NCBI GenBank assembly: GCA_042572045.1
Contig: JBHPFI010000003.1
Location: 6,342-70,341, forward strand
DNA from: Candidatus Omnitrophota bacterium
Lineage (GTDB): Bacteria > Omnitrophota > Gorgyraeia > Gorgyraeales > Gorgyraeaceae
Reading direction: 5' to 3'
DNA length: 64,000 bases
The position numbers and the translations under genes are program-made. This document shows positions 446-64,000 of this stretch, piece by piece (position 1 is the stretch's first letter; every line of letters begins with the position of its first letter). The notes under the pieces were generated by a model. That model was not told the origin of the DNA, ran no database searches, and saw only the letters and a list, made by a program, of their open reading frames with translations.

Positions 446-3199
446 ATGAAAAAATCATCGAAAGATTCTAAGGATCCTAATCTTAAGAAAAAAGGGAAAA
501 AGAGGCTTTTTCTGATCGATGGGAATTCTTATTGCTATCGGGCTTATTATGCCATAAAAGAACTCAGGAATTCAAAAGGCCTTCCTACCAACGCGATCTA
601 TGGCTTTATATTGATGCTTAAAAAATTACTCGACACGCAAAATCCTGATTACCTGGCCGTGGCATTTGATTTAAAAGGACCTACGTTTAGACATAAAAAA
701 TTCAAGGAATATAAAATCAAAAGAAAACCTATGCCTGACGACCTTGTTTTACAGCTGCCTATGATAAAGGAGATAGTGTCCGCTTACAATATACCCATAT
801 TTGAAAAAGAGGGATTTGAGGCAGACGACATCCTAGCCACGATTGCCAAGAAGGTTTCCAAAGAGAAGCATATCGATGTATGCATAGTGACAGGCGATAA
901 AGACATATTGCAGCTTGTGGATGAAAATATAAAGATATACAGCACTCACAAAGAAGGACTTGTGTATGACGAAAATGCGGTAAGGGAAAGATTTTCCGGA
1001 TTAGGGCCAGAGAGCATGGTTGATCTAATGGCCTTGGCCGGAGATGCGACTGACAATATTCCTGGCGTGCGCGGCATAGGAGAGAAAACAGCCATTAACT
1101 TGATAAAGGAGTTTAATAATATAGAAAATTTATATAACAACCTGGACAGGATAACGAATGAGTCAAAGAAAAAAATATTAGCAGATGATGAAGAGAGCGC
1201 CCGCATGTCAAAGGAGCTTAGCGCCTTGGACCTCTCTGTAGGCATAGACATTGATGTTGAGACTATGCGCGTGATAGCGCCTGATACAAAAAAACTTTCA
1301 GGACTTTTTAAAGAATGGGAGTTTAAGGGTTTTGCAAAAGAGATCGCATCCTGTGATTCTGACATACGTCGCGAGGCATGTTACAAGACGATTTTGACGC
1401 AAAAGGAATTTGATCTTTTTCTTGGAGAATTAAAGAAGCAGAAAGAGCTTGTCCTGGATTTTGAAACAACGAGTGAAAACCCGTTAAAAGCAATGCCGGT
1501 AGGCATATCTTTTTGCTGGAAGAAGGCCAATGCCTATTATGTCCCGCTGGTTAATAAAAACCAGGCGCATGCTGCCGGAGCGCATAAAGACATTGAGATA
1601 GGACGCGCGCTAGAGGCATTGAAGCCCGTCCTAGAGAGCGAGGACATAAAAAAGATAGGGCAGAATCTAAAATATGAAAAATTGATACTTTCGGAACGCG
1701 GCATAGAATTAAAGGGGATATATTTTGATACCATGATAGCGTCTTATTTGTTGAATCCGTCGAAAATCAGCCATAATCTGGACGATATGGCATTTGAGAG
1801 GCTTGACCATAAGATGATATCGCTGGACGAGGTTTTGGGCACAGGCAAGAAAAGAATGACAATGGATATGGTTTCCCTGGATAAGGTTTCTGAATATTCT
1901 TGCGAAGATAGCGATGTGACATTCAGGCTCAAAGAGATTTTCGAAAAGCAACTTTTCGATAAAGATCTGAGCGGCCTTTTTCAAGAGATAGAGGTCCCGC
2001 TCATAGAGGTGCTGTCAGATATGGAGAAAAACGGCGTAAAGATAGACAAGGGCTTGTTGAAAGATACATCAAAGATCATGGAAAAGGATCTATCTCACAC
2101 CGTAGCCAATATCTACAAGATGGCAGGGGTGGAATTTAATATAAACTCGCCAAAGCAGCTGAGCGAGATATTGTTTGAGCGATTAGACCTGCCAGTAATA
2201 AGAAGGACAAAAACCGGCATCTCTACTGACATGGGTGTCCTTGAAAGGTTATCCCTGGTCCACCCATTACCAAAAGAACTTTTGCGATACAGGGAATTAT
2301 CCAAATTAAAATCAACATACATAGATGCATTACCTGAGCTCATAAACAAAAAAACAGGAAGACTACATACGTCCTTCAATCAAACAGTTACCGCGACCGG
2401 CAGGCTTTCATCCAGCAAGCCAAATCTGCAGAATATACCTATAAAAACAGAGCAAGGCAAAGGCATAAGAAAGGCCTTTATAGGTGAACATGGCGCGTAT
2501 ATTATATCCGCGGATTATTCCCAGATAGAATTGAGAATTCTGGCGCATTTGTCCAAAGACGAACAGCTGATGATGGCGTTTGAAAAAGACAAGGACGTGC
2601 ATGTACACACCGCTTCCTTGATATTTGACGTTAAAGAAAAAGACGTGACACATGAGATGAGGGCAAACGCAAAGACGGTAAATTTTGGAATAGTCTACGG
2701 CATGAGCGCATTTGGCTTATCGAGAGGGCTTTCTATTGACCCAGCGAGCGCGCAGCGTTTTATAGATTCTTATTTCGAGAGGTACCCTGGGGTAAGGATG
2801 TACATGGAGGACAAGATAGAAGAGGCCAGAGACACAGGTTATGTTACTACCCTTTTTAATAGACGCAGGTATATACCAGAAATAACAACCGGGGGCATAA
2901 AAGGGCAGCAGCAGGCCGAAAGGATAGCGATCAATACACCAATACAAGGCTCGGCAGCAGATCTTATAAAGATAGCCATGGTCAATATACATAGAGAGAT
3001 AAAAGAGAGAAAGCTCTCCTCGAAGATGATACTGCAGGTGCATGACGAGCTCGTCTTCGAGACCCCTAAAGAACAACTCGAACCTATGTGTTCCCTGGCA
3101 AGAAAGAGCATGGAATGTGCTGTAAAATTGCGCGTGCCGATAAAGGTAAGCATAAAGTACGGGAAGAACTGGCTGGAGACAGAAGAAGCGCAATTTTAA
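446..3199 (+). CDS. polA: DNA polymerase I
   Basis: 5'-nuclease N-terminus LFLIDGNSYCYRAYYA, ExoI LDFETTS, pol motif A DYSQIELRILAH, motif C QVHDELVFE. First ATG in the ORF is at 446 (track start 413 is TTG). Confidence 0.95.
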   Translation: MKKSSKDSKDPNLKKKGKKRLFLIDGNSYCYRAYYAIKELRNSKGLPTNAIYGFILMLKKLLDTQNPDYLAVAFDLKGPTFRHKKFKEYKIKRKPMPDDLVLQLPMIKEIVSAYNIPIFEKEGFEADDILATIAKKVSKEKHIDVCIVTGDKDILQLVDENIKIYSTHKEGLVYDENAVRERFSGLGPESMVDLMALAGDATDNIPGVRGIGEKTAINLIKEFNNIENLYNNLDRITNESKKKILADDEESARMSKELSALDLSVGIDIDVETMRVIAPDTKKLSGLFKEWEFKGFAKEIASCDSDIRREACYKTILTQKEFDLFLGELKKQKELVLDFETTSENPLKAMPVGISFCWKKANAYYVPLVNKNQAHAAGAHKDIEIGRALEALKPVLESEDIKKIGQNLKYEKLILSERGIELKGIYFDTMIASYLLNPSKISHNLDDMAFERLDHKMISLDEVLGTGKKRMTMDMVSLDKVSEYSCEDSDVTFRLKEIFEKQLFDKDLSGLFQEIEVPLIEVLSDMEKNGVKIDKGLLKDTSKIMEKDLSHTVANIYKMAGVEFNINSPKQLSEILFERLDLPVIRRTKTGISTDMGVLERLSLVHPLPKELLRYRELSKLKSTYIDALPELINKKTGRLHTSFNQTVTATGRLSSSKPNLQNIPIKTEQGKGIRKAFIGEHGAYIISADYSQIELRILAHLSKDEQLMMAFEKDKDVHVHTASLIFDVKEKDVTHEMRANAKTVNFGIVYGMSAFGLSRGLSIDPASAQRFIDSYFERYPGVRMYMEDKIEEARDTGYVTTLFNRRRYIPEITTGGIKGQQQAERIAINTPIQGSAADLIKIAMVNIHREIKERKLSSKMILQVHDELVFETPKEQLEPMCSLARKSMECAVKLRVPIKVSIKYGKNWLETEEAQF

Positions 3200-3220
3200 T
3201 CTAAAGAAAGAACCTGTTTT

Positions 3221-3811
3221 ATGGTCATTGGCGTTACAGGTAGTTTTGGAAGCGGCAAGAGCTTTGTCGCAAAGATGTTTGCGCAGCGAGGCGCTTATAT
3301 TGTTGATGCGGATGGAATATGCCACTCGTTGATGAAGCCATCAAAAAAGGCTTACAAAAAAGTCCTCAGGCATTTTGGCCGCAGTATACTCAAAAAAGAC
3401 AAGACCATCGATAGAAAAAGGCTGGCAGGTATTGTTTTTGAAAAAGGAGGCGAGATAAAGCTGCTCAATAGGCTCGTTCACCCAGAGGTCATAAAGGAAA
3501 TGGTGAGGCTTATACGGACAAACAAAAAGAACGCTCTTATAGTTGTTGATGGACCTCTTTTGGTGGAAACGGGTTTTTATAAAAAAATGGATAGGTTGAT
3601 AGTTGTAAAAACTGGGAGACACATACAGACCAACAGGATGATCAAGGCAAAAGGTATGTCCAGGAATGAGGTATTGGACAGAATAAGGATGCAGGCGCCT
3701 TTGAAAAAGAAACTAGCGCTTGCCGACTTTGTTATAGATAATAGCGGTTCGAAAAAGGAAACTTTATCTCAGGTTGAAAAAATTTGGAAAACAATAAGTT
3801 TGTCCGCCTGA
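3221..3811 (+). CDS. coaE: dephospho-CoA kinase
   Basis: P-loop IGVTGSFGSGKS, about 195 aa, typical position after polA. Confidence 0.9.
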   Translation: MVIGVTGSFGSGKSFVAKMFAQRGAYIVDADGICHSLMKPSKKAYKKVLRHFGRSILKKDKTIDRKRLAGIVFEKGGEIKLLNRLVHPEVIKEMVRLIRTNKKNALIVVDGPLLVETGFYKKMDRLIVVKTGRHIQTNRMIKAKGMSRNEVLDRIRMQAPLKKKLALADFVIDNSGSKKETLSQVEKIWKTISLSA

Positions 3812-51204: not shown

Positions 51205-52166
51205 AGAGAGAGAAAATATCCTTTTTTGTAAAGATTGTGATAAGCTTTGGTCTGCTTTTAGGTTTATTGTGGATTATGCGCCACAATATAGGCGATGTTA
51301 TTGATATTCTGAAAAAATCCAACAAGGTATTTTTTGCAGTGGCGCTGTTGATAAGCCTGCCCCTTACGGTGGCTACATCCTTTCGTTTAAAAGTCGTCAT
51401 GTCAGGGCAGGGCATATCCCTGCCCTTAAAGGATTTTATTTATCTGACATTTATAGGGTATTTTTTTAATAATTTTTTTCCAACAGCCATCGGAGGCGAC
51501 GTTGCAAAGGGCTATTATGCTTCCAAAAAGACCAATAATGCTACCGCCTCTTATGCTGCAATATTGGTTGACAGAATGATCGGGGCCCTGTCTTGTTTGT
51601 CCATAGCTGTCATAGGCATCATTTTTGTCGGAAAAGAGATTGGAAACAACAAGGTTATTTTAGCCGTCCCTTTGATGCTGGTTGCATTGGTATCATTTTT
51701 CTTCCTCCTGGCCAATAAAGAAAGAGTTAGATTCATGCTTCCTATTTTCGAAAAAATCGGCCTGTTAAACAAAATAAAAAACACTATCTCCAAGCTGTAC
51801 AATGCCATTAATTCTTACAAACATAATGTCGGATTTCTGACAAAGGCTTATTTTTTAGGGGTGTCTACGCAGTTTTTTGCTATACTGTCAGTCTACTTTT
51901 TTGTGCTCAGTGTAGGGGGGAACATGCCCTTACTAAAGCTTTTTTTGATTATACCGCTTGTATGGGCCTTAAGCATGTTGCCTTCGCTAAATGGATTAGG
52001 CGTCAGAGAAAGTGCCTTTGTTTACTTTTTAAAAGGCGATATCGGAGCGGATAAGGCATTTTCTATCTCCATTCTGTGGCTTAGCGTAATCATCTTGTAC
52101 GGCATTATAGGAGGCGTGCTGCATTTAGCCTATCCGCTTAAGGTTAAAAAACCAGCAATAACATAG
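51198..52166 (+). CDS. flippase-like / lysylphosphatidylglycerol-synthase TM-region family membrane protein
   Basis: About 8 predicted TM helices, FFPTAIGGDVAKGYY motif. ATG 51198 overlaps the upstream stop. Confidence 0.65.
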   Translation: MVKREKISFFVKIVISFGLLLGLLWIMRHNIGDVIDILKKSNKVFFAVALLISLPLTVATSFRLKVVMSGQGISLPLKDFIYLTFIGYFFNNFFPTAIGGDVAKGYYASKKTNNATASYAAILVDRMIGALSCLSIAVIGIIFVGKEIGNNKVILAVPLMLVALVSFFFLLANKERVRFMLPIFEKIGLLNKIKNTISKLYNAINSYKHNVGFLTKAYFLGVSTQFFAILSVYFFVLSVGGNMPLLKLFLIIPLVWALSMLPSLNGLGVRESAFVYFLKGDIGADKAFSISILWLSVIILYGIIGGVLHLAYPLKVKKPAIT

Positions 52167-52176
52167 GAGGGGTCCA

Positions 52177-52338
52177 ATGATAGACAAAGAACTTTTGGAA
52201 ATACTGGCCTGCCCGGCTTGCAAGGCGAGCGTCGAGTTAAAAGAGAATAAAATTTGCTGCACCAAGTGCAAAAGAAAATACCCCGTCAGAGACGGCATTC
52301 CCATAATGTTGATAGAAGAGGCGGAGGTTGGTAGTTGA
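52177..52338 (+). CDS. Trm112-family small zinc-ribbon protein
   Basis: 53-aa ORF not in the track: LLEILACPACK...CTKCKRKYPVRDGIPIML. SD GGAGGGG upstream. Confidence 0.8.
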   Translation: MIDKELLEILACPACKASVELKENKICCTKCKRKYPVRDGIPIMLIEEAEVGS

Positions 52339-52394
52339 CAACTCTAAAAACCCACTAAATTACACATTGCTGATTTCTAAAAGAAGGAGACCTT

Positions 52395-52829
52395 ATGCTT
52401 AAGATATTAGTAATCCATGGGCCAAACTTAAATCTGCTAGGTAAAAGAGAGCCTGATGTTTATGGAAAGATTACCATCGAGGAGATCAACGAAAAACTTT
52501 GCCAACTGGCAAAGGCAAAAAAGGTTGAACTCGATATATTTCAATCGAACCATGAGGGCGAAATTGTAGATAAAATAGGCGAGACCAAAAATAAATACGG
52601 CTCCTTGCTCATAAACCCTGCCGCTTATACACATACAAGCGTTGCGATACGCGATGCGATAATGGCCACTGATATACCCACAGTAGAAGTGCATCTTTCA
52701 AACATACATTCCAGGGAAGAATTCCGACGCGCCTCACTGGTCGCACCTGTCGCAAAAGGTCAGATATCCGGATTTGGTATTGATAGCTACATATACGGCT
52801 TGGAGGCGGCGATAAAACTGGGGCTATGA
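52395..52829 (+). CDS. aroQ: type II 3-dehydroquinate dehydratase
   Basis: [44 protein letters not shown]. Confidence 0.95.
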
Positions 52830-53902
52830 ATTATAGCAAAAGACGAGACGGATTAATAAGATCGCTTGAATCCAAATCCCTGCACGCGCTCATTGTAAGA
52901 AAAAAGCAGAACATATCCTACCTGGTAGGCGCAAAGGGTGAAGACGCGGCCCTTTTTATTTCTAGCAAAAAAAACTTTCTTGTTACTGATTCAAGATATC
53001 AGGAAGAATACAAATGTCCTGTTAAAGATTATCAGCTAGAGGTTGTCAACGGCGAAGATCTTTGGCCATGTGTAGAACGCATCTCTAAAAAGACGAGCTC
53101 GAAGCGCATAGGATTTGAATCCCATAGTTTCTCGTATTCAGAATACCTTGATTTAAAGAAACGCGTGAAGAACGTTGCGCTTGTACCAGTGAAGAATATG
53201 GTAGAATCTCTCAGGATGCTCAAAGACGACGATGAGGTCGCATGCATTAAAAAGGCGTGCGAATATGGCTGCGATATAATGGATTACGGGCTTAAGATGC
53301 TAAGGCCTGCTCGCAGCGAGATTGCCGTAAAGACTATGATAGAGGGCTATATTGCAAAAAAACGCTTAAAGGCCGCGAGTTTTGATATTATTGTCGCGTC
53401 CGGGAAAAACGCGTCCATGCCACACGCGAGCGCATCAAAAAAGAAAATCAAGGACGGGGAGATGGTCATAATAGATTTAGGGGCAATGAATTACGGATAT
53501 AATTCTGACTTGACAAGGACTGCTTTCTTGGGTAGAATTAACCGCAAGTATCTACGCATCTACAACATTGTACTGGATGCCCAGAAAAAGGCTATAGAGC
53601 ATATCAAACCCGGGGTTCCGGTTAAGTATATAGACGCTATATCCCGTAAATATATATTAGATAAAGGCTTTGGCAGGCATTTTATACATAGCCTTGGGCA
53701 CGGGATAGGGTTAGAGACGCATGAGCTGCCGCGTGTTTCCAGGCATACTACGGCAACGTTAAAGAAAAACATGACTGTGACTATTGAGCCTGGTATTTAC
53801 ATCCCTGGGTGGGGCGGCATAAGGATCGAGGATGTCGTGCTTGTTACCGAAGACGGAAGCGAAATATTAACACAAAGGTGCGAAAAAACATTATGCAGAT
53901 AG
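52826..53902 (+). CDS. pepP: M24-family Xaa-Pro aminopeptidase
   Basis: [36 protein letters not shown]. Confidence 0.9.
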
Positions 53903-54453
53903 GCCTGAACCAGATGAAGAATGGCTTAAGCATAGGGCTGGATGGCGAGATTTACTCTGTCGTAAGCTGTAAACATGTAAAGCCTGGAAAAGGCGGGGCC
54001 TTCATGCGCACAAAACTAAAGAATTTAAGGTCAGGAGCGGTTGTTGACAAAACATTCAGGCCTAATGAAAAAATTGAAATCGCTTATATAGAAAAGAAGA
54101 CTATCCAGTATTTGTATTCGTCCAAGGATCTTTATGAATTTATGGACCATGACACATATGATCAGATAACCCTGCATCGGGAACAACTGGGCGACGTGGT
54201 CAACTATCTTAAGGAGAACGCGGAAGTATCCGCGCTTGTGTATAAAAATAAGATCATAGCGCTCGAGCCGCCTATTTTTATTGACTTGAAAATAGTTTCA
54301 ACTGAGCCTGGGATAAGGGGCGACACATCAAGGTCCGGGACAAAACCCGCAAAGACAGAAAGCGGCATGACCGTCTTGGTGCCGCTCTTTATAAACGAAG
54401 GGGATGTTGTGCGCATAGACACCAGAACAAAGGAATACACAGGTCGCGCGTAG
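53893..54453 (+). CDS. efp: elongation factor P
   Basis: KNGLSIGLDGEIY, HVKPGKGGAFMRTKLKNL. The internal ATG 53893 removes an arginine-rich overlap with pepP. Confidence 0.9.
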   Translation: MQIGLNQMKNGLSIGLDGEIYSVVSCKHVKPGKGGAFMRTKLKNLRSGAVVDKTFRPNEKIEIAYIEKKTIQYLYSSKDLYEFMDHDTYDQITLHREQLGDVVNYLKENAEVSALVYKNKIIALEPPIFIDLKIVSTEPGIRGDTSRSGTKPAKTESGMTVLVPLFINEGDVVRIDTRTKEYTGRA

Positions 54454-54508
54454 CATTGTCGGGGGGCCATCGTCATAAGGCCTTCACTTGTAGTCAAAGG
54501 AGCCGAAT

Positions 54509-54967
54509 ATGAATCTAAAAGAGATAAAAGAGCTGATCAATCTGATGAACGAAAACGATCTTACTGAATTAGAGGTCGAGCGCGAGGGAGCAAAGATAAG
54601 AATTAGAAAATCCTCGTCGGGAAAATTTGAGGCAGTTGCCGAAGGTCCGGCCATGCCGAGAAGGGTTCAGACGATCAATGTGGATCAAGAAGCGCTTGAC
54701 AAAAAAGAGGAAAAGCCAGAGAAAGATCTTGTGGCAATAAAAGCGCCCATGGTGGGGACATTCTACAGGAGCCCTTCGCCAGAAGCAAAGCCATGCGTAG
54801 AGATCGGTCAGGCAATAGACGTCGGTGATGTAGTTTGCATTATTGAGGCGATGAAGCTTATGAATGAAATAAAATCAGAAGTAAAAGGAAAAATAGCAGA
54901 GGTCCTTGTAGAAAACGCCAACCCCATCGAATACGGCGAATCCTTATTTATGGTAGAATCCGTATAG
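54509..54967 (+). CDS. accB: acetyl-CoA carboxylase biotin carboxyl carrier protein
   Basis: Biotinyl-lysine motif CIIEAMKLMNEI. Confidence 0.95.
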   Translation: MNLKEIKELINLMNENDLTELEVEREGAKIRIRKSSSGKFEAVAEGPAMPRRVQTINVDQEALDKKEEKPEKDLVAIKAPMVGTFYRSPSPEAKPCVEIGQAIDVGDVVCIIEAMKLMNEIKSEVKGKIAEVLVENANPIEYGESLFMVESV

Positions 54968-54975
54968 CAAAAAAT

Positions 54976-56322
54976 ATGTTTTCAAAGATATTGATAGCAA
55001 ATCGCGGAGAGGTAGCTGTAAGAATAATACGCGCCTGCAAAGAAATGGACATCAGGACGGTTTCAGTGTATTCAGACGCCGACTCAGACTCGTTGCACAC
55101 GAGATTGGCAGATGAGGCTGTTTGTATAGGCCCGCCCAGCCCTTCCGAGAGTTATCTGAATATTCCTGCCATTATAAGTGCCGCTGAGATAACAGATGTA
55201 GACGCAATACATCCGGGCTATGGATTTCTAGCAGAAAATTCGCATTTTGCGGAGATATGTGAGTCTTGCGACATTGCATTTATCGGACCTACGCCTGAGA
55301 ACATGAGGTTGTTAGGGGATAAAATGACAGCCCGTCAGACCATGCAAAAGATCGGCATACCTGTCATACCAGGCAGTCCTAATATATTGAAGACAAAAGA
55401 AGACGCGATGAAAATAGCCAAAAAATTAAAATACCCAGTAATCATCAAGGCATCCGCGGGAGGAGGCGGCAAGGGCATGAGGGTTTGTCATAATGATGTG
55501 CGTCTCGTGAGCGCTTTTATGACAGCGCAACAAGAGGCAGAATCAGCTTTTGGCAAATCTGACGTATATCTTGAAAAATACATTGAAAGACCTAGGCACA
55601 TAGAGGTTCAGATTTTAGCGGATAAATTTGGCCATATCTTTCATCTTGGCGAAAGGGATTGCACCATCCAAAGGCGCCATCAAAAATTAATAGAAGAATC
55701 CCCATCTCCTGCAATAAGGCCTAAGCTAAGAAAAAAAGTAGGAGATATGGCTGTAAAGGCTGCCAGGGCGTGCAATTATTTAAACGTCGGCACCGTGGAG
55801 TTTTTGTTTGACAGATATGAAAATTTTTACTTCTTAGAAGTGAATACAAGGATTCAGGTCGAACACCCTGTAACAGAAATGGTGACAGGGATAGATTTAG
55901 TAAAAGAACAGATAAAGATTTCTGCCGGCATTAGACTCCCGTATAAAAAACAAGACGACATAGAAATCAAGGGCGCTGCTATCGAATGCAGAATAAATGC
56001 TGAAAATCCTGAGAAAGATTTTATGCCGTGCCCGGGCAAGATAGATATGTTTTTGCCTGCGGGAGGGCCCGGTGTAAGGGTAGACTCGCATGTCTATCCC
56101 GGTTACACCATATCCCCTTATTATGACTCTATGATAGCAAAGATCATCTGCTACGGAAAAAACAGACAGCAAGCAATAAAAACCATGAAGAGGTCTTTAG
56201 ATGAGTTTTTAGTGGGCCCGATAAAGACAACAATACCTTTTCATAAGCATGTCATGGCTGATGCATTGTTTTTGCGGGGAGATTTTGCAACTGATTATGT
56301 GGAAAACTTGACCTCAAAGTAA
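54976..56322 (+). CDS. accC: acetyl-CoA carboxylase biotin carboxylase subunit
   Basis: ILIANRGEVAVRIIRA, ATP-grasp GGGGKGMR, EVNTRIQVEHPVTE. Confidence 0.95.
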   Translation: MFSKILIANRGEVAVRIIRACKEMDIRTVSVYSDADSDSLHTRLADEAVCIGPPSPSESYLNIPAIISAAEITDVDAIHPGYGFLAENSHFAEICESCDIAFIGPTPENMRLLGDKMTARQTMQKIGIPVIPGSPNILKTKEDAMKIAKKLKYPVIIKASAGGGGKGMRVCHNDVRLVSAFMTAQQEAESAFGKSDVYLEKYIERPRHIEVQILADKFGHIFHLGERDCTIQRRHQKLIEESPSPAIRPKLRKKVGDMAVKAARACNYLNVGTVEFLFDRYENFYFLEVNTRIQVEHPVTEMVTGIDLVKEQIKISAGIRLPYKKQDDIEIKGAAIECRINAENPEKDFMPCPGKIDMFLPAGGPGVRVDSHVYPGYTISPYYDSMIAKIICYGKNRQQAIKTMKRSLDEFLVGPIKTTIPFHKHVMADALFLRGDFATDYVENLTSK

Positions 56323-56365
56323 TAAAATATGGCTCAGGCGGGCACATATAGACGGAGGTGTTATT

Positions 56366-56977
56366 GTGAAAATATTTAATATAATCGCGATATTTCTATA
56401 CACCCTTTTATTTTCTATGGTCGGGGCTGTGCTTATGGCGCTTTCGCTTTACCCGTCATCTCTTGAATCAGCAATAAAGATGATAAATAGTTTATCGGAG
56501 ACGGATAATATAAGAATGGGCATGGCGTTAACAGGATTGGCGCTGATTTTTGTAAATATATCCATAGCGCAGCTTTCCATAAGAAGGCTTCGGAGGCATA
56601 AGACGGTTGCCTTTGAGAATCCATACGGACAGGTAACCCTGTCTTTGTCAGCAATAGAAGACTACATAAAAAAACTCACGCACACAATGACAGAGTTAAA
56701 CGAATTCAAGGCTAACATAAGCGCTGGTAAATCCGGCATTGAAGTTGCTGCAAAAGCAGAGCTTTATTCTGATGTGAACATTCCTGAGGTTACCGAAAAG
56801 GTGCAGAATGCGATACGAATACGCTTGCAGGAGATCCTGGGCATAGAAGAAAAGGTCGCAATAAAGATCCATGTCACAAAGATAATCCAAAGGGAAAGAG
56901 GCGTTGAGCAAAAATACACAAAAAAAGAAACCCGGCAAGGTGGTTTCAAGGGAGAAATTGAATATGGCAAGCAGTAA
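56366..56977 (+). CDS. membrane-anchored Asp23/AmaP-like (alkaline-shock-type) protein
   Basis: Two N-terminal TM helices, then a segment like Asp23-family proteins (ENPYGQVTLSLSAIEDYI). GTG start after GGAGGTG. Confidence 0.5.
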   Translation: MKIFNIIAIFLYTLLFSMVGAVLMALSLYPSSLESAIKMINSLSETDNIRMGMALTGLALIFVNISIAQLSIRRLRRHKTVAFENPYGQVTLSLSAIEDYIKKLTHTMTELNEFKANISAGKSGIEVAAKAELYSDVNIPEVTEKVQNAIRIRLQEILGIEEKVAIKIHVTKIIQRERGVEQKYTKKETRQGGFKGEIEYGKQ

Positions 56978-58034
56978 ACTAAAAAAGAGAAAAAATAAAG
57001 GCGTTGTAAAAAAAGTTGGGGTATTGACCGGCGGAGGAGATTGTCCTGGCTTAAATTCTGTTATAAGAGCGATTGTGAGATATGCGATCAGAGAAGGGTA
57101 TCGGATAACAGGAATAAAGAACGGCTGGAAAGGGTTGATTGAAAAGAATTCCATGCCCTTGGACCTTGATTCAGTCTCAGGTATCTTGCGAAGGGGCGGA
57201 ACTATATTAGGGACTTCAAGAACAAACCCGTACAAGAAAAAGGGAGATGTGGGCAAGGTAAAAGAAAACTTCAAGAAATTAGGGCTTGAGGCGTTGATAG
57301 CTATCGGAGGCGAGGACACGCTCGGGGTCGCTGCCAAACTATACAAAGAAGGTTTAAACGTGGTGGGCGCGCCAAAGACGATTGACAACGACCTTTCGTG
57401 TACAGATGTTACATTTGGCTTTGACACAGCAATAAACATCGCTACTGATGCCATTGACAGGCTCCATACCACGGCAGAGTCTCATAACAGGATCATGGTT
57501 GTTGAGGTGATGGGCAGGCATGCGGGCTGGATTGCCATAGAAGCTGGGATAGCAGGAGGGGCTGACGTAATCTTGATACCAGAGTTGCCCATAGACGTGA
57601 ATGAAGTATGCAAACTCTTAGAGAAACGTCATTCAAGGGGGAAAAGCTTTAGTATTATTGTGGTAGCAGAAGGCGCAAAGTTTAAAAAAGGCACCCTGGT
57701 CAAACAGGAAGAAAAGCTGGATTCATTTGGCCATGTTAGACTGGGCGGGATAGGTCATAATTTGGGCGAGATAATAGAAAAGAAAACAGGGTTTGAAACA
57801 AGGGTGACTGTTCTCGGGCACATACAAAGGGGCGGCACGCCTACTGCCTTTGACAGGGTGCTGGGAGCGCGCTTTGGCGTAAAGACAATGGAGCTTGTGC
57901 TCAAAAAAGATTACGGAAAGATGGCTGCTTTAAACGGCAATAAAATAGAGGCCGTCTCCTTAAAAAAGGCTGTTTCTAAACTAAAAACAGTTGATATGGA
58001 GCTTTATGATATTGCCAAGCTATTCTTTGGTTGA
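56964..58034 (+). CDS. pfk: 6-phosphofructokinase, predicted pyrophosphate-dependent
   Basis: GVLTGGGDCPGLN, IGGEDT (Asp at the E. coli Gly104 position), PKTIDND (Lys at the Gly124 position), MGRHAG. Confidence 0.85.
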   Translation: MASSKLKKRKNKGVVKKVGVLTGGGDCPGLNSVIRAIVRYAIREGYRITGIKNGWKGLIEKNSMPLDLDSVSGILRRGGTILGTSRTNPYKKKGDVGKVKENFKKLGLEALIAIGGEDTLGVAAKLYKEGLNVVGAPKTIDNDLSCTDVTFGFDTAINIATDAIDRLHTTAESHNRIMVVEVMGRHAGWIAIEAGIAGGADVILIPELPIDVNEVCKLLEKRHSRGKSFSIIVVAEGAKFKKGTLVKQEEKLDSFGHVRLGGIGHNLGEIIEKKTGFETRVTVLGHIQRGGTPTAFDRVLGARFGVKTMELVLKKDYGKMAALNGNKIEAVSLKKAVSKLKTVDMELYDIAKLFFG

Positions 58035-58087
58035 ATATTAAATCGGCAGCTAGTGAGAACTGCTGTCAAAAAAAGAGGTCGCCAGGC

Positions 58088-58651
58088 ATGCGAAAAAAAA
58101 TAGCCAGCCGGATACATGAAAGCGTATATGTAAAACAGGCCCTTTTAAAAACTCAGGTCAGCGCCATTGAAGAGCTTGCCAGGACAATGTCGCATACCAT
58201 AAAAAGAGGCAACAAGATCATAATATTCGGTAACGGCGGGAGCGCTTCTGACAGCATTCATATAGCTGCGGAGCTTGTCGGCAGATTTCACAAGGAAAGA
58301 AAGGCACTTCCTGCTGTCGCTCTGGCAGCCAACATATCTTCGCTTACTGCCCTTGGCAACGATTATGGATTTGACTATATTTTTGAAAGGCAGATAGAAG
58401 CCCTTGGAAAAAAAGGAGACCTGGCGCTGGGTATCTCCACGAGTGGAAAATCAAAAAACGTAATACGCGGGATACTAAAGGCCTCGAAGATGAAAATGAA
58501 GACAGCTGTATTAACAGGCAAGGCCAAAGAAAGACTTTCGCAAATAGCCGACATCTCTATAAAGGTGCCGTCAAATAATACGCCCCGGATACAAGAAGCC
58601 CATATCCTGATCGGACACATTGTCTGTGAAATCGTCGAAGATGCTTTATAA
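58088..58651 (+). CDS. gmhA: SIS-domain phosphoheptose isomerase
   Basis: GNGGSASDSIHIAAEL, ISTSGKSKN, EAHILIGH. Confidence 0.85.
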   Translation: MRKKIASRIHESVYVKQALLKTQVSAIEELARTMSHTIKRGNKIIIFGNGGSASDSIHIAAELVGRFHKERKALPAVALAANISSLTALGNDYGFDYIFERQIEALGKKGDLALGISTSGKSKNVIRGILKASKMKMKTAVLTGKAKERLSQIADISIKVPSNNTPRIQEAHILIGHIVCEIVEDAL

Positions 58652-59117
58652 TAAGATAAAAAATCTGCCTGAGTTGACAAAGGCCTTAAAAAACCTTAAG
58701 GTTAGAAACAAAACCATTGTATTTACAAATGGTTGCTTTGATATCCTGCACGTCGGCCATGTCAGCTATTTAACAAAGGCAAAATCAATGGGCGACGTGT
58801 TGGTAGTTGGATTAAACAGCGATTCTTGTACAAGAAAATTAAAAGGTAAGAAAAGGCCTATAGTTTCACAAAAAAACAGGGCCAAGATTCTTTCAGCGTT
58901 GAGCGCTGTGGATTTTATAGTTATATTCGATAGTCTTACCCCTTACAAGTTGATAAAGACCTTGAGGCCGGACGTGCTTGTAAAGGGCGGGGATTGGAAA
59001 ATAAAAACCATTGTCGGAGCTGATTTTGTCCGCTCTTACGGCGGCCTTGTAAAAAGCCTGCCCTATAAAGAAGGGTTTTCTACAAAAGGGCTTATTAAGA
59101 AAATAAAATCGTCTTGA
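58641..59117 (+). CDS. D-glycero-beta-D-manno-heptose 1-phosphate adenylyltransferase (RfaE domain II only)
   Basis: Cytidylyltransferase motif FTNGCFDILHVGHVSYL, RPDVLVKGGDW. Confidence 0.85.
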   Translation: MLYNKIKNLPELTKALKNLKVRNKTIVFTNGCFDILHVGHVSYLTKAKSMGDVLVVGLNSDSCTRKLKGKKRPIVSQKNRAKILSALSAVDFIVIFDSLTPYKLIKTLRPDVLVKGGDWKIKTIVGADFVRSYGGLVKSLPYKEGFSTKGLIKKIKSS

Positions 59118-59140
59118 TTGCGCGTAAGGCGCCTGAACGC

Positions 59141-59563
59141 ATGGACAAAAAAATCTTTCAAATAATAGACGCTAATTTAAACAGGACCCGGGAGGGGTTA
59201 AGGGTCTGCGAGGATATAGCTAGATTCATGATTCCCGATAAGAATTGCGCAAAGGCCTTAAAGATCATAAGGCATGCCGCAACAAAGGCGCTTTTAGATT
59301 CAAAGGACCTGTCGTTAAAAAAACTTCTACGGTCAAGGGACACAAAAAGAGACTTGCTAAAATTCGTTGATTTTAAGAAGCAACGTAATGACGGCGTTGC
59401 GGATATCTTTATGTCCAACATCGAACGCGTAAAAGAATCTCTCAGGGTACTTGAAGAATGCTGCAAGATTATAGATGAAAACGCAAGCCGTAAATATAGA
59501 AGGTTGAGATTTAATGCGTACGCTGTTGAAAAAATGGCTGTTGGAAAAATCATAGGGTCATGA
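59141..59563 (+). CDS. small protein resembling the N-terminal extension of long-form thiamine-phosphate synthases (ThiD2-like)
   Basis: IIDANLNRTREGLRVCEDIARF motif, recalled from ThiE N-terminal extensions. Overlaps the thiC start by 4 nt. Confidence 0.4.
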   Translation: MDKKIFQIIDANLNRTREGLRVCEDIARFMIPDKNCAKALKIIRHAATKALLDSKDLSLKKLLRSRDTKRDLLKFVDFKKQRNDGVADIFMSNIERVKESLRVLEECCKIIDENASRKYRRLRFNAYAVEKMAVGKIIGS

Positions 59564-60834
59564 CACAGTTAAAACTCGCAAAACTGAATAAAATATCTTC
59601 TGAGATGCGGTATATTGCTAAGCATGAAGGCATTCCTTCGGACATATTGAGAAAGCGCATTAAAGACGGCCGCATTGCGCTCATTAAAAATTCAAAAAGA
59701 GAGGCAAGGCCGTGTGCGGTTGGCGAAGGTTTGCGGACAAAAGTAAATGCAAATCTTGGCACATCCCAGGATAAGGCGCAACTGAAAACTGAGCTGAACA
59801 AGCTGCGCGTCGCCATACGCTCAGGCGCTGACACGGTAATGGATTTGAGCACAGGCGGAGACATAAAAAGGCTGCGCAGGGCTATTTTAAAACACTCGAG
59901 CGTGCCCGTAGGTACTGTTCCTGTATACCAGGCAGCTATAAAAGCGCATAAAGAAAAAGGGCATATATCCCGCATGAGGAAAGAGGATATCGTGGAGGCC
60001 TTTGAAGAACAGGCATCTGACGGCGTAGATTTTTTTACAGTCCACTGCGGAGTAACGCAAGCCACGCTTACGCTGTTAAAAAGAAAAAGGCGCCTTATGC
60101 CTATCGTCTCCAGAGGAGGCGCTTTTCTCGCAGAATGGATGATCGTGAACAAAAAAGAAAACCCGTTATATGAATATTTCGACGATATTATTGCTATCGC
60201 AAAGAAATATGACATAACATTAAGCCTTGGCGACGGCATGAGACCAGGTTCATTGATAGACGCTACTGACAGGCCTCAGATACAAGAACTTATTATTCTC
60301 GGGGAGCTGGCAGAAAGGGCAAGAAAACGCGATGTGCAGGTAATAATAGAAGGGCCCGGCCATATACCAATAGACCAGATAGAATCAAATGTACTTATAG
60401 AAAAAAAGATGTGCAACCATGCGCCTTTTTACGTATTGGGTCCTCTTGTGACAGATGTCGCGCCTGGCTATGATCACATAGTAGGGGCAATAGGCGGCGC
60501 CATGGCAGCCTTTTATGGCGCAGATTTCTTATGTTATGTGACCCCGTCAGAACACCTAAGGATACCGGATAAAAACGATATAAAAGACGGAGTTGTGGCC
60601 TCTAGGATAGCTGCTCATGTGGCTGACATAGCCAAGCGGATACCAGGCGCCCTGGATTGGGATAGAGAAATGTCAAGATGTCGTTCTGCAAGAGACTGGG
60701 AAGGCCAAATAAAGAGATCCATAGATCCCGCAAAACCAACTTATTATAGAAAATCCGCCAAGTCTAAAAATAAAGACGTATGCACGATGTGCAGCAACTA
60801 CTGCTCGATGAAAATAATGGAAAGATATCTTTAG
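59560..60834 (+). CDS. thiC: phosphomethylpyrimidine synthase
   Basis: Radical-SAM-like C-terminal CxxCxxxxC (CTMCSNYCSMK), conserved EGPGH, GDGMRPG blocks. Confidence 0.95.
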   Translation: MTQLKLAKLNKISSEMRYIAKHEGIPSDILRKRIKDGRIALIKNSKREARPCAVGEGLRTKVNANLGTSQDKAQLKTELNKLRVAIRSGADTVMDLSTGGDIKRLRRAILKHSSVPVGTVPVYQAAIKAHKEKGHISRMRKEDIVEAFEEQASDGVDFFTVHCGVTQATLTLLKRKRRLMPIVSRGGAFLAEWMIVNKKENPLYEYFDDIIAIAKKYDITLSLGDGMRPGSLIDATDRPQIQELIILGELAERARKRDVQVIIEGPGHIPIDQIESNVLIEKKMCNHAPFYVLGPLVTDVAPGYDHIVGAIGGAMAAFYGADFLCYVTPSEHLRIPDKNDIKDGVVASRIAAHVADIAKRIPGALDWDREMSRCRSARDWEGQIKRSIDPAKPTYYRKSAKSKNKDVCTMCSNYCSMKIMERYL

Positions 60835-61743
60835 ATGAGCAAAATACTCGTAATAGGCTCTGTTGCCCTGGACACCATCAGGACCTCTCTAGGCATATCA
60901 AGAGACGTATTGGGCGGTTCTGCCATGTATTTCTCGGTAAGCGCGAGCTTTTTTGCCCAAGTCAATCTTGTAGCTACGGTCGGAAAGGATTTTCCTGATA
61001 AACACAGGTCACTTATAAAATCTTTTGGCGTAAACATAAACGGGTTAGAGACAAAAGAGGGCAAGACATTTCGATGGGAAGGTTCTTACGTGGACGACCT
61101 AAACTGCGCAAAGACAATAAATACGCAACTGAATGTATTTGCTGATTTTAAGCCCGAGATACCGCGGGAATACAGAGACAGCAAATTCCTTTTTCTTGCT
61201 AACATAGATCCTGACCTTCAGCTGTTTATATTGAGAAACTTTAAGCATCGGCAATTTGTCGGATGCGATTCAATGAATTACTGGATTCAGAACAAAGGTC
61301 CGACCTTGAAGAGATTAATGAAAGAAACCTCGATTATTTTTTTAAACGACGCGGAAGCAAAACTCTTTTCCGGAGAGACCAATGTCCTTAAGGCCGGGAG
61401 GTATCTGATTTCGTTGGGGCCAAGATTTGCAATAATAAAAAGAGGCGAATACGGCGCGATTTTATTTAGCAAGGGGGTGGATACCCCTTTTTCAATACCT
61501 GCCTATCTTTTGGATACCATCTCTGACCCAACCGGCGCAGGAGATACATTCGCCGGCGGGTTTATGGGGTACATGGCTAAAACGAACAGAATAAATGACC
61601 AGATTATGCGCAAATCTCTTTTGTATGGCTCGACAATGGCTTCGTTCACCGTTGAAAATTTTAGCATTAATAGATTTCTAACGCTGAAAAGGAAAAATAT
61701 AGAGGCTAGGTACAAGCGGTTCGAAAAATCGATCACGCTTTAA
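60835..61743 (+). CDS. PfkB/ribokinase-family carbohydrate kinase
   Basis: C-terminal DPTGAGDTFAGGF motif. Starts one base after the thiC stop. Confidence 0.8.
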   Translation: MSKILVIGSVALDTIRTSLGISRDVLGGSAMYFSVSASFFAQVNLVATVGKDFPDKHRSLIKSFGVNINGLETKEGKTFRWEGSYVDDLNCAKTINTQLNVFADFKPEIPREYRDSKFLFLANIDPDLQLFILRNFKHRQFVGCDSMNYWIQNKGPTLKRLMKETSIIFLNDAEAKLFSGETNVLKAGRYLISLGPRFAIIKRGEYGAILFSKGVDTPFSIPAYLLDTISDPTGAGDTFAGGFMGYMAKTNRINDQIMRKSLLYGSTMASFTVENFSINRFLTLKRKNIEARYKRFEKSITL

Positions 61744-61805
61744 AAAATAGGGCTTTTGTCAGGGCGCGCGATTTAGGATAGCTCCTAGATCTTTATGGGC
61801 AGGCC

Positions 61806-61879
61806 GCGGGTGTAGTTCAATGGTAGAACACGAGCTTCCCAAGCTCGCAGCGTGGGTTCGATTCCCATCACCCGCTCCA
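61806..61879 (+). tRNA. tRNA-Gly (anticodon CCC), CCA encoded
   Basis: Manual cloverleaf: acceptor GCGGGTG/CACCCGC, D arm GTTC-AATGGTA-GAAC, anticodon arm CGAGC-TTCCCAA-GCTCG, T arm GTGGG-TTCGATT-CCCAT, discriminator T + CCA. Confidence 0.9.
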
Positions 61880-61888
61880 TTCAAGAAT

Positions 61889-62188
61889 ATGAAAAACGTT
61901 AAAAAGATCATTAAAAACCTGACTTCTTCCGGCTCCAAGAAAGTATTCTATGCGTCGGTAAAGTGCTCTGGGTGCGAAGAAGAGGTAAAAATAAGAATAA
62001 ACCGTCCTTCAGATTTTCAGGAAGAGTATAATCCGCATAACCCAGAACACTGTTACACAGTAAAAAAAGAGATAATCGGAAAAAAATGTTTCAACCTTAT
62101 GAAATTGACGCTCGCCCTGACAAAAAAGATAAATGTTTTATTCGCTGATGCCGAATCATGTGAATTCATGGCATTCGATAGGGAGTAA
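61889..62188 (+). CDS. hypothetical small Cys-containing (possible zinc-ribbon) protein
   Basis: 99 aa from the first ATG beyond the tRNA. CSGC...HC...C pattern; no family recognised. Confidence 0.45.
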   Translation: MKNVKKIIKNLTSSGSKKVFYASVKCSGCEEEVKIRINRPSDFQEEYNPHNPEHCYTVKKEIIGKKCFNLMKLTLALTKKINVLFADAESCEFMAFDRE

Positions 62189-62192
62189 CGTT

Positions 62193-63815
62193 ATGCCGTA
62201 TTATAGAACCGCTATCCTCAATAACCTGATACATCGCGTAAACTCCTTCTCCGAAGGGTACAGACAGAATATAGCTATCATCGGAGAGCCCTGCATAGGG
62301 AAAACCTCTCTTATAAAAAACCTTTTGTCTTCGGATAAAATAAAAAAAGATGCGGTTATACCAATATATCTTGAGATAAAAATAGAGCCTTTTGAGTTTT
62401 GCGCAAAGCGCTTTATAAAGTCAGCTCTTTTTCAACTCTTGCAATCCGATCCTCTCCTGGCAACGTCGCACGATACAGTGTTATTAATAGAAGATCTCCG
62501 CGGGCAATATCCAAAGACCGCGCAAATATGCATAAGGGTCTTGCAGGACATAGAAAAGAACAGGTTCGACGAGGCCTTTTCTTTTATGATGGATATTACG
62601 GCAACGATTTTTGAAGAGAGTAAAAAGCGATGCATACTTATTCTCGATGAATTTCACAACCTAGGCAACTTTATGCTGAAGCACCCCTTTGGAACACTTG
62701 CAAAAAAGATCATGCTGCAGAAGGGTACTATGTATCTTCTGGTAAGCTCTAAGAATACAATCTCTCAGCGGCTATTGAGTGAAAAGCTCTCAATGCTTTT
62801 CGGCAATTTTGAAAAAGTTCTTCTACCGCCTTTCGACCTTAACGCAAGCCGGTCTTTTCTTCAGGAAAACATAAAGGGGGTAACCTTCCCCCAGGCATAT
62901 CTTGACTTTATCGCGTCTTTTACAGGCAGCAGGCCTTTATATATGCAACTAATATGCGATGAGATCGAGAGGATTGTTTTTTCCAAAAAGGCCTTCCCCG
63001 AAGATTATGTCGGGCTTATAGAATGCGCGCTGACAGAGGCCATCTTTAAGAAAACAGGGACAATAAACCAGCATTTTTACAACCTTTTCTTTAAGATCTC
63101 GGATGGGAAATTATTGTCTAAAAGCGCCGCGGTCCTTATCGCGCTCTCGTCTGAAAACAAGAAACAACAGGACATCGTTAAATCTTCCAACTTGCAGGCT
63201 CGGGACGTTTCCAGGATATTGAGCAGACTGCTGGAAATGGACGTTATCGCGCGAAATGGCTCGTTCTACAGGTTTAAGGACAAGCTTTTTAGCTTCTGGC
63301 TCCAGTCTGTTTACCTGAAAAGGCTCCTGTCGTTCAGTATAGATGAATCGTTGGAAAAAAACATTTTTAAAAAAGCTGCGATGAATAAACTCAACGTGTT
63401 CATGCAAGAGCTGGAAAAAGAGCTTTCCTCAAGGGTCATAGAACTCTTCAGATTGTTCAAAAACGACGTAATACAGTTAAACGGCAGAAAGCACAAGTTT
63501 CCTTTGTTTGGCAATGTTCAAAAGCTCGAGGACAGTGCCTCTCGTAAGACAACAAGCATCCTGGCCACAGAAGGCAAGCTTAAATGGTTATGCACGATTA
63601 AAAAAGAATATGTGACAGAAAATGACATAACAGAGGCTATAAAAAAGATTGGGGAAGATAAGCAGAACAATAGGATAAATAGGCATGTGCTTGTTTCGCT
63701 TGCTGGCATAAACGAGAACGCCTATCTTTTGGCAAAAGAGGCAAAGTTCTGGGTATGGGACCCGGAGAGCCTTAATGTGTTAATGGAACTTTACGGCAAA
63801 CCGCACATAGCTTGA
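62193..63815 (+). CDS. archaeal-type P-loop ATPase (COG1672-like) with DUF234-like C-terminal region
   Basis: Walker A GEPCIGKTS, Walker B ILILDEFH, central winged-helix-like segment (QQDIVKSSNLQARDVSRILSRLLEMDVI). ATG is 5 nt after the upstream stop. Confidence 0.65.
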   Translation: MPYYRTAILNNLIHRVNSFSEGYRQNIAIIGEPCIGKTSLIKNLLSSDKIKKDAVIPIYLEIKIEPFEFCAKRFIKSALFQLLQSDPLLATSHDTVLLIEDLRGQYPKTAQICIRVLQDIEKNRFDEAFSFMMDITATIFEESKKRCILILDEFHNLGNFMLKHPFGTLAKKIMLQKGTMYLLVSSKNTISQRLLSEKLSMLFGNFEKVLLPPFDLNASRSFLQENIKGVTFPQAYLDFIASFTGSRPLYMQLICDEIERIVFSKKAFPEDYVGLIECALTEAIFKKTGTINQHFYNLFFKISDGKLLSKSAAVLIALSSENKKQQDIVKSSNLQARDVSRILSRLLEMDVIARNGSFYRFKDKLFSFWLQSVYLKRLLSFSIDESLEKNIFKKAAMNKLNVFMQELEKELSSRVIELFRLFKNDVIQLNGRKHKFPLFGNVQKLEDSASRKTTSILATEGKLKWLCTIKKEYVTENDITEAIKKIGEDKQNNRINRHVLVSLAGINENAYLLAKEAKFWVWDPESLNVLMELYGKPHIA

Positions 63816-63822
63816 TTAAGAA

Positions 63823-64000
63823 ATGAAAATCGGGATTATTTCTGATACACACATACCTATCAATAGCCGCGAGTTATCTGCGGATCTCCTGGATGCGCTT
63901 AAGGGTTGCGACCTAATACTTCATGCAGGCGATTTGATAGAGCTATCACCGCTTGAGAGCTTAAGGAAAATATCAAAAGTAGAAGCTGTTTGGGGCAATA
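63823..64000 (+). CDS. YfcE/MJ0936-type metallophosphoesterase, 5' part (truncated by the window end)
   Basis: MKIGIISDTHIP and HAGDL motifs. Confidence 0.75.
   Translation, partial: MKIGIISDTHIPINSRELSADLLDALKGCDLILHAGDLIELSPLESLRKISKVEAVWGN

Follow-up and report, generated by a model that had tools for sequence, protein, structure and literature searches.

Introduction

The closest described relatives of the protein considered here are ATPases of the PF01637/COG1672 type. DUF234, which is listed as a PD-(D/E)XK family, is fused to COG1672 ATPases (PMC3424549), while in the DUF1703-type proteins a PF01637-like AAA+ module is fused to an active PD-(D/E)XK nuclease domain (PMC1913061). SSO1545-like ATPase modules also occur in the regulator IniR (PMC5760070). 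Here we analyse a 64,000-nucleotide (nt) stretch from a Candidatus Omnitrophota bacterium (GenBank assembly GCA_042572045.1, contig JBHPFI010000003.1, positions 6,342 to 70,341 of the forward strand; the whole stretch is referred to below as the window). At its end a tRNA-Gly(CCC) gene is followed by genes for a 99-residue protein with a CxxC motif, a 540-residue AAA+ ATPase and a YfcE-family metallophosphoesterase.

The phylum Omnitrophota is widespread and uncultured, and its cells are very small. In Escherichia coli, tRNA genes of tufB-type operons are co-transcribed with a protein-coding gene. No functional study of the ATPase family was found in the literature. An earlier reading of the window by a model (the original prediction) had suggested that the tRNA and the three genes behind it form an NTPase-centred module at a variable site, with nucleic-acid surveillance or defence as one possibility. 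By comparing the locus with its relatives we show that the region belongs to the core of the Omnitrophota chromosome and is inherited vertically as a block of genes, in which the ATPase probably acts as a housekeeping switch.

Distribution and gene order in Omnitrophota

One database entry, from a Candidatus Omnitrophota bacterium, is 100% identical to the ATPase. Around 90 full-length homologues of the ATPase (~540 residues) were found at 53–79% identity, with a second tier at 31–45%, and every named homologue of the full-length protein is from Omnitrophota. When one genome per GTDB species was scanned, relatives were seen in at least 570 species genomes; the best 80 of these matches are all from Omnitrophota or from metagenome-assembled genomes (MAGs) titled ‘uncultured Planctomycetia/Planctomycetales’ that have the same locus. 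Among 1.84 billion cluster representatives searched with a profile of the ATPase, 375 match at E<1e-30, the best 150 being almost all of ~540 residues. The ATPase is apparently near-universal in Omnitrophota. The MAGs with Planctomycetia/Planctomycetales titles and a fully syntenic Omnitrophota-type locus include L011, L012, L015, L016, L025, L029, L036, L037 and L040, and the titles of these records probably reflect coarse automated taxonomy.

To follow the gene order, a context survey with tblastn and ARAGORN covered 87 loci, and gene tables were made for loci whose ATPases share 64%, 70%, 45% and 34% identity with that of the window. The order is retained in loci with ATPase identities from 30 to 79%, and that of the block is kept across the phylum in 80 loci. 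Upstream, the conserved order runs EF-P, AccB, AccC, PFK, SIS, cytidylyltransferase, ThiD2, (ThiE), ThiC and PfkB, and then tRNA-Gly(CCC); the upstream genes of the window (DHquinase, M24, EF-P, AccB, AccC, PFK, SIS, ThiD2, ThiC and PfkB) stand in the order seen in the relatives. In 59 of the 65 loci where this could be tested, the tRNA precedes the ATPase by no more than 1.3 kb. The slot between the two is variable, holding a LysM-M23/NlpD-like protein, the 99-residue protein or nothing. After the ATPase, the orthologous loci have a YfcE phosphodiesterase, which is no more than 300 nt away in 74 of 79 testable loci, followed by HIT, dGTP triphosphohydrolase, (GAF-)HD-GYP-type phosphodiesterase, SPOR, SH3, M50 and DHQ synthase, with RNase III closing the order in L001 and L003. 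In L004 the gene calls overlap by 4 nt both at the M23/ATPase and at the ATPase/phosphodiesterase junction.

The pairwise distances between the ATPases correlate with those between the dGTPases (r 0.88), the metallophosphoesterases (r 0.84) and the HIT proteins (r 0.87) of the same loci (Mantel p 0.001), as vertical co-inheritance predicts. Both lines of evidence show the region to be a core, vertically inherited block. Core synteny in all relatives had been named in the original prediction as something that would speak against it, and the survey of orthologous loci found exactly this.

Architecture of the ATPase

The features of the locus are listed below with the evidence for each in brackets.

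61806–61879, + strand: tRNA-Gly(CCC) with an encoded CCA end (ARAGORN; Rfam RF00005, 72.5 bits)
61889–62188, + strand: open reading frame (ORF) of the basic 99-residue CxxC protein, ATG 61889, TAA 62188 (ORF calling, sequence)
62180–62185, + strand: AGGGAG, the Shine-Dalgarno sequence of the ATPase gene, inside the 3′ end of the 99-residue ORF and 7 nt before the ATG (direct reading)
62193–63815, + strand: 540-residue AAA+ ATPase of PF01637 type, ATG 62193, TGA 63815 (ORF, Pfam, AlphaFold, Foldseek)
62283–62306, + strand: Walker A, G31-E-P-C-I-G36-K37-T38 (G31, G36 and K37 invariant in 40 orthologues)
62634–62651, + strand: Walker B, I-L-I-L-D152-E153 (E153 invariant and D152 at least 90% conserved in 40 orthologues)
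63108–63332, + strand: predicted winged helix-turn-helix, residues 306–380 (secondary structure of the model, helix-turn-helix matches of orthologues, basic charge)
63459–63812, + strand: predicted C-terminal restriction-endonuclease-like (PD-(D/E)xK) fold, residues 423–540 (domain model, Foldseek)
63823–64000, + strand: 5′ part (59 codons, ATG 63823) of the YfcE-family metallophosphoesterase, cut by the end of the window (Metallophos_2, TIGR00040)

In Pfam the window ATPase matches AAA_22 with 33.4 bits (cutoff 27) and falls below the cutoff for ATPase_2 (PF01637; 26.5 against 33.2 bits). The latter family is matched at E<=0.1 by 30 of the 40 orthologues, with a best E of 8.8e-13. A search of the PDB by sequence profile gave nothing below E 0.04. 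The AlphaFold model, made from a 40-sequence alignment, has a predicted local distance difference test score (pLDDT) of 90.4 and a predicted template modelling score (pTM) of 0.87, and when compared with the PDB in Foldseek its best matches are 2fna (E 1.1e-10) and 2qen (E 3.1e-10), with a template modelling (TM) score of 0.67, normalised to the target, over ~400 aligned columns. Orc1/Cdc6 comes next in rank, with STAND proteins (Apaf-1, CED-4, plant NLRs) behind it; all of the matches lie within the first ~400 residues. Alignment by hhalign to a Parabacteroides PF01637 protein (98% probability, E 1e-13) spans residues 2–380 and ends at a shared FYRF..LF.FW motif; a homologue search with that protein gave only near-identical 379-residue proteins without DUF234. 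From the ranking in Foldseek and the span of the hhalign alignment we assign residues 1–380 to a PF01637-type module, consisting of AAA+ core, lid and winged helix.

Both motifs on which the ATPase was originally recognised, GEPCIGKTS (residues 31–39, Walker A) and ILILDEFH (residues 148–155, Walker B), are present. With G31, G36, K37 and E153 invariant and D152 nearly so, ATP binding and hydrolysis have probably been retained. The lid has a GxP-like motif, G-x-P248-x-Y250, and there are weak matches to nSTAND6 and AAA_16 among the orthologues. No Pfam match to repeat-type domains (TPR, WD40, LRR) was seen in the window ATPase or the 40 orthologues. The earlier description of a winged-helix-like middle is borne out by weak helix-turn-helix matches at residues 311–361, which are better in the orthologues, and by the AlphaFold model. 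Winged-helix families (HTH_45, HTH_5, MarR) are matched by about a quarter of the 40 orthologues, over which the net charge of this segment averages +7.9 (range +2 to +13), with the other segments near neutral.

Modelled alone, residues 380–540 form a single compact α/β domain after the winged helix (pLDDT 90.3). In Foldseek most of its top matches are restriction-endonuclease-like, namely EndoMS/NucS, AF1548, MspJI, the Rpb5 N-domain, Cap4, AspBHI and VC1899, though the scores are weak (E 1e-3 to 5e-2, probability 0.9–1.0). Mrr_cat is matched, below threshold, by three of the 40 orthologues and by a few of 10 isolated C-terminal domains (18.7 bits in the latter; cutoff 21). On the strands at residues 453–460 and 463–470, strong conservation among the 40 orthologues is limited to A458 and W465; no acidic or lysine column that might supply a catalytic Asp or (D/E)xK is conserved there. 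The domain is best read, from its model and its alignment, as a degenerate, non-catalytic nuclease fold. An active restriction-type nuclease was considered and ruled out, as the catalytic motif is not conserved. The tail had been thought to resemble DUF234. While the likeness holds for the restriction-endonuclease-like fold class, it does not extend to membership of the family, as PF03008 is matched neither by the 40 full-length ATPases (E<=0.1) nor by the 10 isolated C-terminal domains (E<=1). A DUF1703 sequence match was likewise absent from the Pfam scans of the 40 orthologues and isolated C-terminal domains.

Tests for mobile and defence elements

An integrase ORF was found neither between the tRNA and the end of the window nor among the genes tabulated for orthologous loci. 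The last 25 nt of the tRNA occur once in the window, to which the search was limited, with up to three mismatches allowed, and the GC content is 0.41–0.46 on either side of the tRNA with no compositional shift. An island or prophage remnant was rejected, as neither an integrase nor an att site was found and the GC content does not shift.

Searches against PADLOC-DB gave no significant defence match; the best for the ATPase are LeoA (0.0025) and mad8 (0.0053), which cover the P-loop segment only, and the best for the phosphoesterase fragment is PDC-S10 (1.4e-4). No match to the ATPase was obtained by tblastn in phage genomes and just two remote Bacteroidales ones in plasmids, at 22–24% identity. 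In PHROGs there is a match to a family of unknown function (4.8e-7) over the AAA region; the matches there, like those in a viral fold library, are of generic AAA+ character only.

The suggestion of a tRNA-linked variable site or island is contradicted by the same tRNA–ATPase order being found phylum-wide, by the co-divergence with housekeeping neighbours, by the flat GC and by the lack of a repeat of the tRNA 3′ end. That of a defence or surveillance module fails likewise, with nothing meaningful in PADLOC and a locus that is syntenic core.

The tRNA and the spacing of the genes

The tRNA, the three ORFs and the motifs that had been described are all present in the sequence. The packing is as tight as claimed; the spacers between tRNA and 99-residue ORF, between this and the ATPase and between ATPase and phosphoesterase are 9, 4 and 7 nt rather than 10, 5 and 8 nt, a difference in counting only. 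The first of them (TTCAAGAAT) is without a Shine-Dalgarno sequence. As spacers of 4–9 nt are too short to hold a promoter, a single transcript is likely to span the tRNA and the genes behind it, and the tRNA would be cut out of this by processing. Such a tRNA–mRNA co-transcript implies that processing would leave an almost leaderless mRNA.

A start of a protein gene 9–20 nt after tRNA-Gly(CCC) is seen in the window (61806–61891), L005 (7244–7327), L010 (5616–5699) and L013 (1406–1493). The gene directly 3′ of the tRNA is that of the 99-residue protein in the window, L010 and L013, and an NlpD-like M23 gene in L005. The order of tRNA and then gene, with spacers of 9–60 nt, holds phylum-wide. 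By ARAGORN this is the sole tRNA in the window. All long ORFs in positions 1–64000 that are not overlapped by longer ones, ~60 consecutive genes, are on the + strand, and the cumulative GC skew climbs steadily over 52000–64000, the last 12 kb profiled. The window is an extreme case of gene co-orientation.

The 99-residue protein

Homologues of the 99-residue protein are present at 13 of the fetched loci (L003, L008–L014, L016, L017, L022, L025 and L037), and five further ones came from databases; their identities are 52–71%, with 36% in L037. These homologues share a conserved length and N-terminus, and the ORF is a real gene. Only C26 and C29, which make up the CxxC, and C67 are invariant in the 18 homologues. 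The pattern CSGC...HC...C noted earlier holds for these three cysteines and not for that of the ‘HC’, C55, a column that is neither invariant nor nearly so and in which many homologues have another residue. The protein could not be assigned to a family in Pfam, PADLOC, NCBIfam or PHROG, and a profile search of the PDB gave nothing. Ten of the 18 members have near full-length matches below threshold to PF05907 (CXXC_Zn-b_euk; C1orf123/DUF866), at best 21.7 bits (cutoff 22.9), a likeness that may serve as a lead only.

By profile search upstream of the ATPase, the gene is confined to a subclade in which the ATPase is at least 65% identical to that of the window and to the distant L037, where the M23 gene precedes it and the ATPase follows. 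In close relatives such as L001 the gap between tRNA and ATPase is just 110–390 nt. Because the gene is confined to one subclade and L037, the trio is not a conserved unit; the gene is missing in many close and nearly all distant relatives. The only stable part of the trio is the pair of ATPase and phosphoesterase. What stands of the uncharacterised NTPase-centred module in the original prediction is an NTPase of the COG1672/PF01637 kind packed against a YfcE-type phosphoesterase, and what falls is the three-gene unit. A match of the ATPase to a known housekeeping family would likewise have spoken against the original prediction; the family it belongs to is one without known function.

In distant Omnitrophota the slot holds the gene of a LysM-M23 (NlpD/EnvC/ActS-like) amidase activator (L004, 7315–8000). 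In the clade of the window the M23 gene is gone from the slot (window 61880–62192), and the 99-residue gene or nothing is there instead. In L037 the slot (2559–3554) has both genes, which excludes the idea that the 99-residue ORF is a remnant of a lost M23 gene.

The phosphoesterase and other neighbours

The fragment of the phosphoesterase in the window matches Metallophos_2 with 51.3 bits (cutoff 27) and, owing to its truncation, TIGR00040 with 45.9 bits (cutoff 56.25), whereas the L003 orthologue, at full length, reaches 119.2 bits with the latter. The third ORF can therefore be placed in the YfcE family, in agreement with its first description. L037, L065 and L083 have the ATPase without an adjacent metallophosphoesterase. 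Among the genes further downstream the dGTPase matches its NCBIfam equivalog model above cutoff (513 bits), and the NCBIfam matches of the HIT, HD-GYP and NlpD-like proteins are below their cutoffs. For the HIT protein of L003 (12363–12818) the best model is ATP adenylyltransferase (Ap4A phosphorylase-type; 145 bits, cutoff 290) and not a Hint-type one. The run of YfcE, HIT, dGTPase and HD-GYP behind the ATPase comprises four consecutive nucleotide-directed phosphohydrolases or transferases.

A second conserved pair of genes lies ~8 kb beyond the ATPase, on the opposite strand, in one close and one distant Omnitrophota genome (L001, 19159–20431, − strand; L004, 16539–17650, − strand), which encode an AAA_22/AAA_16 (nSTAND1, SLFN-g3-helicase-like) ATPase of ~270 residues and a protein of 155–187 residues without a family. 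Upstream, in the thiD2–thiC region (window 59114–60834), the window and L003 have no ThiE, which in L001 and L004 is placed between ThiD2 and ThiC. No thiamine pyrophosphate riboswitch was found by Rfam at its gathering threshold anywhere in the window, despite the thiamine-biosynthesis genes.

Discussion

Taken together, a core, vertically inherited block of the Omnitrophota chromosome here carries an ATPase that is, as we think fairly probable, a housekeeping, ATP-gated, nucleic-acid-binding switch. The protein is made up of a PF01637-type AAA+ module in which Walker A and Walker B are intact, a helical lid, a basic winged helix and a restriction-endonuclease-like domain that has lost the conserved catalytic residues. 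DNA or another nucleic acid may be bound via the winged helix, and the dead nuclease-like domain would presumably be a module for binding or oligomerisation and not an enzyme. Several points weigh against this. Within the winged helix, the recognition helix shows only moderate conservation, and in STAND and ORC proteins a winged helix can be structural and not DNA-binding. By fold, the C-terminal domain has only weak matches (best E 1.2e-3, TM ~0.4). The function is inferred from the architecture alone and, since the whole 20-kb region is syntenic, the gene order says little on functional linkage. The genes beyond position 64000 were taken from orthologous loci. Lastly, a scan for sigma-70 promoters and terminators, which is uninformative for Omnitrophota, found no convincing promoter before the tRNA and fewer sites than in shuffled sequences.

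The same architecture could also be that of a STAND-like regulator in the manner of MalT or IniR, in which the nuclease-like domain would sense a ligand such as a nucleotide or nucleic-acid fragment, ATP would drive oligomerisation and the winged helix would control the genes of YfcE, HIT, dGTPase and HD-GYP. The order of NTPase, helical domain, winged helix and C-terminal domain is that of STAND proteins, the Foldseek matches to Apaf-1, CED-4 and plant NLR modules (E 1e-7 to 1e-8) are about equal to those to ORC, nSTAND6 and AAA_16 appear weakly in the orthologues, IniR has an SSO1545-like module (PMC5760070) and four nucleotide hydrolases of the same orientation follow. We nevertheless consider it unlikely, as a repeat-type sensor (TPR, WD40, LRR) is missing, no operator or promoter was found, the regulator would sit midway in the transcription unit that it controls and synteny reaches well past these genes, which makes their adjacency weak evidence. 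The pairing of ATPase and phosphoesterase, which is the most stable adjacency (74 of 79 loci), and the 4-nt overlap of the ATPase and phosphodiesterase gene calls in L004, which suggests translational coupling, could instead point to a two-part DNA-processing machine following the logic of Rad50–Mre11 and SbcC–SbcD. In this the ATPase, whose nuclease-like domain is without catalytic residues, would be the DNA clamp or sensor and would recruit the metallophosphoesterase as catalytic subunit. To our knowledge, however, the YfcE family consists of small phosphodiesterases, none of which is known as a nuclease or a partner of an ATPase, and three loci keep the ATPase with no metallophosphoesterase beside it; we regard such a machine as improbable.

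An NTPase-centred system for nucleic-acid surveillance, acquired at a tRNA integration site, has in its favour that the tRNA adjoins, that fusions of AAA+/STAND-like ATPases with nuclease-fold domains are often met with in defence systems and that there are weak matches in PADLOC (LeoA, mad8) and to a PHROG of unknown function. The matches in PADLOC are P-loop noise, though, the nuclease motif of the tail is degenerate, the window has none of the marks of integration, and outside chromosomes there are only the two remote plasmid matches and none in phages. As the block is syntenic phylum-wide and co-diverges with its housekeeping neighbours, this reading is refuted, and we leave it next to no probability. 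Going beyond the housekeeping switch that we favour, the ATPase may be a phylum-specific and possibly essential chromosome factor with no counterpart in model bacteria, an ORC/Cdc6-like ATP switch using a dead nuclease fold for the recognition of DNA structure, perhaps with a translationally coupled YfcE, in replication, repair or nucleoid organisation. This is speculative, and as a whole we hold it to be quite unlikely.

For those searching for mobile or defence elements the locus is a false lead, and adjacency to a tRNA is here no mark of an integration site. The ATPases form a well-delimited, highly conserved family with ~540 residues in every member. Their architecture of archaeal-type AAA+ module, basic winged helix and degenerate nuclease fold has no assigned function in any organism, and a conserved ATPase at a single locus is a good entry point to the role of PF01637/COG1672-type ATPases. 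The juxtaposition of tRNA and mRNA across a phylum also makes a clean case for the study of tRNA–mRNA co-transcripts.

Comparison with known systems

The window ATPase is most like the PF01637/COG1672 ATPases and, by fold and profile comparison, is a member of their wider family. With SSO1545 (2fna) and PAB2304 (2qen) it has in common the AAA+ core, the helical lid and the winged helix, and both groups carry a tail of the nuclease-fold class, which in the known proteins is often DUF234 (PF03008; PMC3424549). It differs in that its Pfam score stays under the gathering threshold (26.5 bits, cutoff 33.2), in that the Omnitrophota ATPases have no DUF234 match and a tail without a conserved D...(D/E)xK, and in that its family is limited to one bacterial phylum and a fixed core locus. 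In the DUF1703-type proteins, too, a restriction-endonuclease-like domain comes after an archaeal-type AAA+ module, but they keep all of the nuclease signature motifs, which the window ATPase family does not.

Orc1/Cdc6 proteins share the succession of AAA+ module and winged helix, with Foldseek E values of 6.5e-10 to 1e-7 against Sulfolobus and Aeropyrum proteins. The identity is just 12–14%, however, the NCBIfam ORC1 model NF001624 is matched with 16.7 bits (cutoff 354), and the window ATPase has an extra C-terminal region of 160 residues and no sign of an origin context. A true Orc1/Cdc6 or DnaA-type initiator was ruled out, as the curated models are unmatched; the likeness to ORC is at the level of the fold. 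STAND NTPases (Apaf-1, CED-4, plant NLRs, MalT/IniR, Avs) have the same domain order, with Foldseek E values of ~1e-7 to 1e-8, and the GxP-like motif in the lid of the window ATPase is a further similarity. Unlike them, the window ATPase has neither a repeat-type sensor nor a catalytically intact effector domain, and it occurs as a single copy at a fixed core locus instead of being patchily distributed, with no Avs or other defence model matched in PADLOC.

In the placing of the tRNA the locus resembles the tufB-type operons of E. coli, the tRNA lying directly upstream on the same strand with a spacer too small for a promoter (9 nt in the window). While co-transcription in the window is inferred from the spacing, the arrangement differs from that of E. 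coli in being conserved across a whole phylum.

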